From IMG/VR virus record IMGVR_UViG_2563366800_000009, positions 1 through 43,512 of that record: a stretch of DNA of 43,512 nt. The stretch is one strand, 5' to 3'. Every line of letters begins with the position of its first letter. Positions within the stretch are counted from its first letter, which is position 1. The notes beneath the pieces were generated by a model. That model was given only the letters and a program-made list of their open reading frames with translations. It did no database searches and was not told the DNA's origin. The stretch comes from a virus (Duplodnaviria > Heunggongvirae > Uroviricota > Caudoviricetes). The position numbers and the translations under genes are program-made. This document shows, in pieces, positions 1,009 to 43,512 of the stretch.

Positions 1009-1083
1009 GTCCTCTTAGTTAAATGGATATAACGAGCCCCTCCTAAGGGCTAATTGCAGGTTCGATTCCTGCAGGGGACACCA
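1009..1083 (+). tRNA. argW: tRNA-Arg (anticodon CCU); prophage integration site (attL side)
   Basis: 75-nt cloverleaf read by eye: acceptor GTCCTCT/AGGGGAC, anticodon loop CTCCTAA, T-arm GGTTCGATTCC, discriminator A plus CCA. Confidence 0.9.
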
Positions 1084-1199
1084 TTTATCAGTTCGCTCCC
1101 ATCCGTACCAGTCCGCAAAATCCCCTGAATATCAAGCCTTCCGTATATTCACGGTTCGTCATGGTTCGCGTCAGATCGTTGACAGCCGCACTCCATGAC

Positions 1200-1244
1200 G
1201 GGTAAAAAGTGGATAAAATAATTTTACCCACCGGATTTTTACCC
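1200..1244 (+). promoter_or_regulatory. Repeat cluster directly upstream of intS: GGGTAAAAA (1200-1208) inverted relative to direct copies TTTTACCC (1222-1229) and TTTTTACCC (1236-1244); candidate recombination-protein binding sites or intS control region
   Basis: Repeats seen in sequence; last copy abuts the intS ATG. Confidence 0.4.
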
Positions 1245-2402: not shown

Positions 2403-2645
2403 CGCCACCTATAAACCGTGCAATAATCAAACTCACATGCGCATCGTTGATGATGTATGTGATCACCACAAATATCACATCTGGACTAGTTCCGTCTTCA
2501 TGCGTAGGTATCTGTTCACGCCTCCATTTCTGCAAATCCTAAAGATGAGGTTTTGGGATATCTTTTTATCCTCAGTTCTCTATCCATTCTACAAAGCAGT
2601 AATGAACCATCACAGTGTGATAGTGAGACATCCGCTACGTTAATT

Positions 2646-2671
2646 GCAGAGAAATGATGCAATGGTGGGCG
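2646..2671 (+). repeat. Degenerate duplicate of the intS 3' end (compare 2350-2375); integrase C-terminus remnant
   Basis: 26 bp with one mismatch to 2350-2375; would encode REMMQWWA as at the IntS C-terminus. Confidence 0.6.
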
Positions 2672-2742
2672 AACTGGTTACCATGCAAAACATCATGTCT
2701 TATAACGTAAATAATTATAGCTTCATTATATAAAGCCATTAT

Positions 2743-4695
2743 CTAACGAAGCCATTGGCTTGGTTTTTGTTTCAGTATATGTATCGCCCCTTGACCGGAA
2801 GCTGCCTGTTGTGCAGTTGCTAGCGTCACTATGTAGGTATTCCCTACTGTTCTTGGTTGAGTAAGGTTAAACTGCAGCGGTGAAGTATCACAGGATATGT
2901 ATTCTATTCCTGAATCAGAAGTCACCTGAAATTCAGTATATAATACACTACCGGAAGAGATAGAAATGTGAATTGCTATCTCACCTCCAGTGTATACAAA
3001 AGGTATACTTGGCATATTTGAAAAATCCTTAAAGTTAAGCATTGACGATGAACTAATAACCTCTTTGCCTACGTCATTAGTAAGTTGAACCGGTTTAGTG
3101 TAATCATAAGCCAGTAGAACGTAATAGTTTACAAAATTTACAAAACTTGAAGACGCCTTTGAAGAGCTATGCCATGTTTTTTTATTGTCCACACGGTATA
3201 TGGATTGGATGTTTAGAAACTCACTTGCCGTTGCTCTTTGCAGTATACCAGTACCTATGCCAAAATGGATATTACCAACGTCAAACACGTGGTCCTCGAC
3301 ATTTCCTGTAGTTGATAATATCGCGATATCAGGCTCTGCACTATCTTCAAGCGCTTCACTGCATTTTTCAAAGTACATAGAACCAACAGACCAACTAACA
3401 GCGTTAACAGTAGCTAAACCAGCGCCTGCTGTGGTTTCAGCTATTAATGTTCCTATTCTTGATGCCAATCCTTGCCCGAGAGTGACACCGGCACCTATGA
3501 GCTGTGGGGTTAAAGATGATGAATACGGATCATACCCATAGGACAAAGATTTTGATGTGTTATACGCAGCGACGACACCAAATTCAACACCATTAACGTT
3601 TACGTCTCCGGTTTCACCGGAGAAACCATGTGCCAAAGAGACACCTCTTGCACAATCAATTCCCATATATTGATTTACTTTATGATACCAACTCCCAAGA
3701 AGTACAATTCCAACTTCTGTGGCATTATAAGCATATATAATGTCTGTGACAGATTCTGCAACTACACCAAAACCATAAAAACCGTAAGGCGCAACATTGT
3801 TAGCATCAATATTTAATGTACCAATGTGCCTAATTCCACGAACTTGTTGTTCAGGCAATGAAAGATCCGGGGATGTTCCTACTGGTTTTTTGCTGGCGCG
3901 AACTACAGCCTTTCCACCCCATGAATAGCCACTCATCGCTTTAATAGTTGCGCCGTTTGTTTCCATCACTAAATACGATGGGATAACAACTTCATCGCTA
4001 ACAAAATATGTACAACCAGGCGTTAACTCAATAAACCCTGTTTTAATTGCCATGTTAATTGCATTTAAACAATCACTTTCAGAATAAGGTTTGGCGCCGA
4101 AGTTCTCTGGGGTGTTTAAGTTAAACCCATTAAGTAGTCCAACGCATATCCAATTATCATCTGGATGGCTTCCAGCATCAACATCATAACCGCCTTCTAC
4201 TATATCTTTCCTGGCATAAAAATACATGTTTCCATCAGGATCGTTATCATAAAGAACAGCATAGCGCTCATCATCAATATGTCCACCTGATGAAAAACTA
4301 ATATCAGACTTAAAATAGAAGTTAAGTCTGAAATGATTTTTTGCCCATACAGAAAATTGATCAGGATCATACTTCAGCACATTCGGAAAATAGAACTGCT
4401 GCGCCCCATACGCATCATAAACAGCCATAGAATGGCCCTGTACAGTAACGAATTTGGCAATCTGTCCGTTATATACCGGATATCCAGCAGCGTTAATGAT
4501 GATTGGCTGCGAAACAGGAACGTGAGAGCCGTCTTCGTTCTCCACATAAACCTGAATCTGGTTTTCAGGATTTACCGGGTCAGTGTCAATTTTACCGATA
4601 TAAATTTTGCCATTGGCAACCGCTTTAAAAGAACGCGCCATAGTGAAGAGTTGCGAAGGCATTGATACGATCACATTGGCTGTAATGTCTGTCAT
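2743..4695 (-). CDS. Tailspike protein; P22-type N-terminal head-binding domain with divergent receptor-binding/enzymatic domain
   Basis: N-terminus [34 protein letters not shown]...[13 protein letters not shown] matches the conserved P22/Sf6/HK620 tailspike head-binding domain; the rest is distinct. Confidence 0.85.
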
Positions 4696-24210: not shown

Positions 24211-24286
24211 TGGTGCTGGTTAACGGACTTGAACCGCTACCCATTCGCTTACAAGGCGACTGCTCTACCATTGGAGCTAAACCAGC
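24211..24286 (-). tRNA. Phage-encoded tRNA-Thr-like gene (anticodon UGU)
   Basis: Cloverleaf read by eye: acceptor GCTGGTT/AACCAGC, D-arm GCTC-CAATGGTA-GAGC, anticodon loop CTTGTAA, T-loop TTCAAGT, discriminator A, CCA; one anticodon-stem mismatch. Confidence 0.6.
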
Positions 24287-24291
24287 ATGTT

Positions 24292-24366
24292 TGGCGGGAC
24301 AGCGTGGACTCGAACCACGATAAGAAGGTTAACAGCCTTCCGTAATGACCTTTATACGACTGACCC
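24292..24366 (-). tRNA. Phage-encoded tRNA-Asn-like gene (anticodon GUU), possibly degenerate
   Basis: Anticodon arm GAAGG-CTGTTAA-CCTTC, T-arm CGTGG-TTCGAGT-CCACG, 3' GCCA; acceptor stem has a T-T mismatch and the D-stem is only 3 bp. Confidence 0.4.
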
Positions 24367-43311: not shown

Positions 43312-43512
43312 ATGCAACACGAACTACAGCCTGATTCACTGGTTGATTTGAAATTCATCATGGCCGATACTGGCTTCGGTAAAACCTTCATCTATGACCG
43401 GATTAAGTCCGGCGACCTGCCAAAAGCCAAAGTTATCCACGGGCGAGCAAGATGGTTATATCGTGACCATTGTGAATTCAAAAATAAGCTCTTAAGCCGC
43501 GCCAATGGGTAA
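43312..43512 (+). CDS. torI: Recombination directionality factor (excisionase) TorI
   Basis: MQHELQPDSLVDLKFIMADTGFGKTFIYDRIKSGDLPKAKVIHGRARWLYRDHCEFKNKLL, recognised as KplE1 TorI; the window ends at its stop codon. Confidence 0.85.
   Translation: MQHELQPDSLVDLKFIMADTGFGKTFIYDRIKSGDLPKAKVIHGRARWLYRDHCEFKNKLLSRANG

Follow-up and report, generated by a model that had tools for sequence, protein, structure and literature searches.

The KplE1 (CPS-53) work of the Ansaldi laboratory is the textbook example of an integrase promoter that lies inside attL and is repressed both by the integrase and by the RDF. In Panis et al. (PLoS Genet 2010; PMC2951348), the sites of the integrase IntS and of the RDF TorI on attL are referred to as 'previously characterized'. 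Four IntS arm-type sites, P'1–P'4, were mutated, each of them containing TAAA, and P'1 overlaps the −10 box (TAaAAa) of the intS promoter PintS, whose −35 box is TTGACA (PMC2951348). Primer extension placed the start of PintS transcription at a T and an A, MG1655 (v2) positions 2464536 and 2464537, and the cloned PintS fragment, 2464344–2464630, was described as running from −223 to +64 (PMC2951348). The five TorI sites, to which TorI binds cooperatively on attL, are 8-bp elements with GTTCG, GATCG or GTCCG, located at MG1655 v2 2464409–36 and 2464472–99 (PMC2951348). IntS represses PintS ∼5-fold (from 6368 to 1270 units), and this repression was still 4.0–5.2-fold when P'2, P'3 or P'4 was mutated singly; P'1 proved inseparable from the −10 box (PMC2951348). 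Repression by TorI, also ∼5-fold, acts via sites I4 and I5, mutation of either alone abolishing it (ratios of 1.0 and 1.7), and I3 is dispensable (PMC2951348). A narrow optimum of the integrase level for excision was also reported (PMC2951348).

Several phages carry the same or comparable arrangements. Between the −35 box and the ATG, the P' arms of HK620 (AF335538), Sf6 (X59553/AF547987) and CUS-3 (CP000711) do not differ from that described here, except that CUS-3 has a single substitution in the spacer. [quoted passage not shown] Lambda Int, with its sites P1, P2 and P'1–P'3, is heterobivalent like IntS, its N-terminal domain binding short repeats that lie on both arms at a distance from the core, to form an intasome, but the two systems differ in the motif, number, spacing and orientation of the sites. 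Since neither of the lambda int promoters, PI and PL, overlaps attL, the arm sites of lambda have no operator function. In satellite phage P4 (Piazzolla et al., as cited in PMC2951348), the integrase binds close to the transcription start of its own gene and represses it, as IntS does, and the RDF also lowers integrase synthesis, as does TorI. However, the proposed target of the P4 RDF, Vis, is the int mRNA, and that of TorI is DNA beside the −35 box (as outlined in PMC2951348).

We analysed a 43,512-nt stretch of viral DNA (IMG/VR record IMGVR_UViG_2563366800_000009, positions 1–43,512), hereafter the window. By alignment, positions 1179–1260 of the window match the attL/PintS region of KplE1 in E. 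coli K-12 MG1655 at every base; KplE1 is the element described by Panis et al. (JBC 2007; Virology 2010; PLoS Genet 2010, PMC2951348). The tRNA gene, the core, the TorI sites, the promoter, the start codon and the TorI protein are common to both, but the window holds a full-length P22-like prophage of ∼42 kb where KplE1 is a 10.2-kb remnant, and a recombined attL of an integrated prophage where the HK620, Sf6 and CUS-3 genomes contain attP. The differences from K-12 are a few substitutions upstream of the promoter (1140–1157), two of them in TorI site I3; there is no difference in the repeats that are the subject of this work. For this K-12-identical DNA, the existence and number of the IntS sites, the transcription start, the repression by IntS and TorI and the role of I4/I5 are taken from the literature, while the sequence identity, the clustering of the repeats, their selective conservation, their presence on both arms and their concerted change were established in this analysis.

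Layout of the left prophage end

The window starts with yfdC (1–933), followed by argW and the integrase ORF. The features outside the repeats are as follows.

1009–1083 (+): argW, tRNA-Arg(CCU), the integration target; called by ARAGORN, positioned relative to intS as in MG1655
1069–1084 (+): attL core, the IntS core-type site CTGCAGGGGACACCAT; the 16-nt duplicated core according to PMC2951348
1087–1114 (+): TorI (RDF) sites I1 and I2, GTTCG and GTCCG; MG1655 v2 2464409–2464436
1150–1177 (+): TorI sites I3, I4 and I5, with 10-bp phasing; MG1655 v2 2464472–2464499
1179–1184 (+): −35 box of PintS, TTGACA (PMC2951348); invariant in 17 diverged sequences
1233–1235 (+): GGA, a minimal Shine-Dalgarno lying 9 nt ahead of the ATG; annotated as ribosome-binding site in Sf6 X59553
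1245–2402 (+): intS, encoding a 385-aa tyrosine integrase that has an arm-DNA-binding domain at its N terminus; from the ORF and the K-12 annotation
43312–43512 (+): torI, RDF; 66/66 residues identical (100%) to K-12 TorI by tblastn

The same core bases are annotated as attP/attL core in the HK620 and CUS-3 records. A search for attR in the window found the core only once, and the window terminates exactly with the stop codon of torI. The six final bases of the window, GGGTAA (43507–43512), are where the first IntS site on the P arm of attR begins, attR itself lying beyond the window; therefore, the stop codon of the RDF gene is located inside an integrase arm site. The window runs from attL to just short of attR, giving a prophage of ∼42 kb whose structural genes resemble those of Lederbergvirus phages. 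Genes for tRNA-Thr(TGT) and tRNA-Asn(GTT) lie within the prophage at 24211–24366 (−). A 650-aa minus-strand ORF (2743–4695) in the structural-gene region follows intS at a distance of ∼340 bp and may, by its position, encode the tailspike. K-12 presumably carries yfdGHI (O-antigen modification) after intS. In the window, the interval from intS to the 650-aa ORF (within 2403–4695) is without O-antigen-modification genes, whereas Sf6 X59553 annotates oac, a gene of this kind, at that place. A 54-aa ORF on the minus strand (1088–1252) spans the att and promoter region and has a counterpart in the Klebsiella phage Chronis record (L006:705–890 (−)), annotated there as hypothetical protein gp28; this ORF is probably a spurious gene call, because it overlies the att sites.

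The published limits of the PintS clone (−223 and +64) fix the A of the intS ATG at MG1655 v2 2464567, which is window position 1245. Mapped in this way, the −35 box falls at 1179–1184, the −10 box at 1203–1208 and the two start positions at T1214 and A1215, the bases agreeing at each. Transcription thus begins ∼30 nt ahead of the ATG. A consensus scan gave a single match in this region, ATGACG-16-AATAAT at 1195–1222, which we rejected in favour of TTGACA-18-TAAAAA on the strength of the published primer extension; the scan missed the true promoter because its −10 rule demands a T at position 6. Translation from ATG 1245 gives 385 aa, as for K-12 intS, with Pfam matches to PF13356 (Arm-DNA-bind_3; residues 2–86, E = 2e-25), PF22022 and PF00589. 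GTG 1209, which opens the mechanical ORF, was rejected as the intS start since it precedes the point at which transcription was mapped to begin and its frame is not kept in relatives, where frame-breaking 1-nt indels occur between this GTG and the ATG.

The sequence-only reading had found no canonical Shine-Dalgarno ahead of intS. This is essentially right, as only the GGA pairs with the anti-Shine-Dalgarno, at a predicted −3.3 kcal/mol where 30 long ORFs of the window have a median of −6.05, but the GGA is nonetheless kept in most relatives, is extended to GGAG in two loci of a sister integrase lineage (L034 and L035; see below), and is the annotated ribosome-binding site of Sf6.

At I3–I5 the window reads GGTTCG, GGTTCG and AGATCG. 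Since I3 differs from K-12 by 2 nt (CACGGTTC in the window, TACAGTTC in K-12), the quantitative behaviour of this attL could differ slightly from that of KplE1. Repression by TorI is expected to be unaffected, given that I3 is dispensable for it.

Repeats upstream of intS and their counterparts on the other arm

The 45 nt at 1200–1244 read GGGTAAAAAGTGGATAAAATAATTTTACCCACCGGATTTTTACCC and are followed directly by the ATG. The motif TTTTACCC occurs exactly at 1222–1229 (+) and at 1237–1244 (+), the latter copy adjoining the start codon (1245–1247), and its reverse complement GGGTAAAA occurs at 1200–1207. A repeat finder returned the same pairs of copies, lengthened to 9–10 nt. These are the three repeats, one inverted and two direct, from which the sequence-only reading started, and as exact matches they are real; the count was one short, however, as a one-mismatch search revealed a degenerate direct copy, GGATAAAAT, at 1211–1219, 11 bp after the first. 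In relatives this position mostly holds GGGTAAA or GAGTAAA, and also GGATAAA, with a column identity of 94%. Between the −35 box and the ATG there are then exactly four TAAA-bearing GGRTAAA repeats, the first pair (1200–1208 and 1211–1219) direct and 11 bp apart from start to start, and the second pair (1221–1229 and 1236–1244) inverted and 15 bp apart.

The clustering of the repeats is real and non-random. Over both strands of the whole window there are five exact copies, where ∼1.0 is expected from dinucleotide shuffles and 1.45 from base composition. Any given 45-bp span would hold at least three copies with a probability of ∼3 × 10−10, or ∼7 × 10−7 when corrected for the whole window, and among 1000 shuffles none had three copies within 45 bp and one had two.

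Exactly four TAAA repeats exist and the first contains the −10 hexamer, and so the three exact repeats probably correspond to P'1, P'3 and P'4, and the degenerate copy to P'2, a numbering that combines the sequence with statements in the text of PMC2951348. The boundaries of P'1–P'4 are expected at 1200–1209, 1211–1220, 1220–1229 and 1235–1244, to within 1–2 nt. The assignments, with strand, are:

1200–1208 (+): first repeat, assigned to P'1, GGGTAAAAA; contains the −10 box TAAAAA (1203–1208); core 100% conserved
1211–1219 (+): one-mismatch copy, probably P'2, GGATAAAAT; holds the transcription start T1214/A1215
1221–1229 (−): second repeat, assigned to P'3, GGGTAAAAT; within the DNA of the 5' UTR; core 92% conserved; an attP repeat in the HK620 record
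1236–1244 (−): third repeat, assigned to P'4, GGGTAAAAA; abuts the start codon; core 99% conserved

All four lie between the core at the 3' end of argW (1069–1084) and ATG 1245, the position of a P' arm. On the other arm, the motif recurs as a doublet, GGGTAAAATAGCGGGTAAAATA, with two copies 11 bp apart that overlap the torI stop codon in HK620 attP and MG1655 attR; P-arm sites were read from MG1655, HK620, the Klebsiella phage Chronis and phage g341c. The HK620 GenBank record annotates the P' repeats and this doublet alike as attP repeats. Such recurrence of a motif on either arm, at a distance from the core, is the hallmark of arm-type sites.

Conservation was assessed on integrase loci from other Enterobacterales, with integrases 58–99% identical to IntS, together with two Klebsiella phages. 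Within a set of 17 non-redundant attL sequences of the GGGTAAA type, with integrases down to 67% identity, the repeat cores were 0.92–1.00 conserved, compared with 0.56–0.80 for the intervening gaps and 0.71 for the promoter spacer, and the G/C triplet of each repeat was conserved as well as its A/T part. Variants within the E. coli population fall in the spacer (1197) and in a gap (1230), leaving the cores untouched. The 72-bp block of promoter and arm sites was present in 1895 of 5426 complete E. coli genomes, and the integrase/att region matches HK620, Sf6, CUS-3 and many other P22-like phages at 96–97%. The layout with four sites is not universal, since the Xenorhabdus loci L025 and L028 contain no more than three repeats, namely a direct pair and a single inverted copy that adjoins AATG. 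One contig binned as a Solirubrobacteraceae MAG (L015) carries an IntS 81% identical and an attL of enterobacterial type, and is probably a mis-binned enterobacterial contig.

A further exact copy of TTTTACCC, the fifth in the window, lies inside intS at 1615–1622. The HK620 GenBank record marks it as an attP repeat, and its extended similarity to P'1 is 14/16. We rejected it as an arm site; most likely it is a chance codon pattern (Ile-Leu-Pro). In relatives the amino acids are kept while the synonymous positions vary freely, even in a K-12-like strain (TTTTACCT), and the copy shows no switch to ATGCCC in the sister lineage described next.

This sister integrase lineage, of 58–71% identity and likewise next to argW, has GGGCATA/TATGCCC repeats in place of GGGTAAA/TTTACCC. 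In seven such loci (L020, L031–L035 and L039) the repeats lie in the ∼60 nt upstream of each int start, and the layout is kept, with a −35 box, a direct pair of repeats and inverted copies, the last adjoining the ATG. In the attP of phage g341c (L089:440–700), the P arm likewise has the switched motif, in an 11-bp tandem pair, and the GTTCG-type elements are unchanged. The two classes of motif are thus uncoupled, the repeats having switched while the GTTCG elements remained constant, and if the integrase recognises the repeats, they would be predicted to change in a coordinated way on the two arms, as they do. Over IntS residues 1–90, some GGGTAAA-type integrases are also only ∼57% identical, as diverged as those of the GGGCATA type, and so identity of the N-terminal domain alone does not separate the arm-motif groups.

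Proposed role of the repeats and competing explanations

The repeats are very probably four arm-type sites, P'1–P'4 (consensus GGRTAAAAW), for the N-terminal domain of IntS, in the attL of a P22-like prophage at argW. The sequence-only reading had offered them as candidates for this role, and it had also stated that the KplE1 intS promoter overlaps attL and is run by the recombination proteins; both points are borne out by the identity with KplE1 attL, for which P'1–P'4, the overlap of P'1 with the −10 box and the ∼5-fold repression by IntS and by TorI have been described.

The primary role of the sites would be architectural. IntS bound to P'1–P'4 would bridge to the core at 1069–1084 and, together with TorI at 1087–1177 and the two P-arm sites of attR, would form the excisive intasome. 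The same occupancy is expected to compete with RNA polymerase, since the −10 box lies in P'1 and the start in P'2, and this would give the ∼5-fold negative autoregulation. TorI at I4/I5, beside the −35 box and probably blocking it, adds a second, independent 5-fold repression. P'3 and P'4 fill the 30-nt leader, leaving space only for the minimal GGA; the weak Shine-Dalgarno may thus be a consequence of site packing, and it would fit the low, tightly bounded integrase level that the system needs.

The further suggestion of the sequence-only reading that the repeats control intS expression applies only in part. Because P'1 is inseparable from the −10 box, it is the only site implicated in autoregulation, and we infer that P'1 is the operator responsible; the single mutants of P'2, P'3 and P'4, by contrast, were still repressed. 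An operator role of any particular repeat is thus provisional, given that repression was relieved by none of the P' mutations made singly and that P'1 cannot be mutated apart from the −10 box.

That reading had named TorI as well as IntS as a possible ligand, and the suggestion has some appeal, given that TorI represses intS and binds attL cooperatively at five sites. Recognition of the TTTTACCC repeats by this excisionase is nevertheless extremely unlikely. The published TorI sites map to 1087–1114 and 1150–1177, upstream of the −35 box, whereas the repeats are all downstream of it, and none of the repeats flagged contains a TorI pentamer (GTTCG, GATCG or GTCCG). Loss of either I4 or I5 suffices to abolish repression by TorI, and so no further TorI operator downstream is needed. 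In the GGGCATA lineage, moreover, the GTTCG-type elements stay while the repeats switch.

An inverted repeat next to a start codon might also act as RNA, in the form of a hairpin that terminates or processes the argW transcript or that sequesters the intS start region. RNA of 1195–1250 is indeed predicted to fold with 1200–1208 paired to 1236–1244 (−15.6 kcal/mol, z = −3.1, with none of 200 shuffles as stable), and there is a T run within the 3' arm. However, the 5' arm of this hairpin is upstream of the transcription start at 1214/1215 and is therefore absent from the intS mRNA, so that the structure would be present only in argW/yfdC read-through transcripts. The actual leader and early coding region (1215–1290) shows no significant structure (z = +0.55), and terminator prediction called nothing at the hairpin site. 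A hairpin would also leave unexplained the direct copy at 1211–1219 and, on the opposite att arm, the pair of copies in direct tandem, and overall we consider this explanation very improbable. The repeats could, at the simplest, be a by-product of an A+T-rich promoter and leader, made up of the −10 box and UP-like or low-complexity sequence, with no specific recognition, the region being A/T-rich and one repeat containing the −10 hexamer. To this we assign a negligible probability: three exact 8-mers within 45 bp were obtained in 0/1000 shuffles, the G/C triplet of each repeat is conserved like the A/T part, further copies of the motif lie on the P arm, where no intS promoter is near, and in the sister lineage all copies changed together.

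Two arm motifs at argW and their implications

As IntS sites serving both the excision complex and self-repression, the repeats were already known. The finding itself is ordinary, because the sites and the experiments suggested for them by the sequence-only reading have been published for the identical sequence: the reports of 2007–2010 cover the mapping of the sites and promoter fusions with mutated repeats, the fusions using gfp.

The comparative point is, as far as the sequences indicate, modestly new, namely that two arm codes appear to be used with one argW core and an otherwise unchanged layout. Both lineages keep an identical arrangement of sites, including the operator-in-promoter arrangement. 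It is possible, although we would put the chance at somewhat under even, that these are two argW-core integrase lineages with mutually exclusive, orthogonal arm codes, GGGTAAA in KplE1/HK620/Sf6 and GGGCATA in g341c and Enterobacter. The duplexes GGGTAAAA (IntS type) and GGGCATAA (g341c type) stand for the two codes. Our literature searches, which were aimed at other questions, turned up no paper on two arm codes at argW.

If the codes are truly orthogonal, competitors for a single att site would be insulated from one another both in intasome assembly and in int autoregulation, and the pair of lineages would offer a natural means of deciphering the code by which the Arm-DNA-bind_3 domain recognises its sites. 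For annotation, the 72-bp block pinpoints where argW-borne prophages have their left end and their regulatory region. The conserved four-site layout in Enterobacterales, together with the wholesale replacement of its motif, could guide studies of specificity in arm-binding domains.
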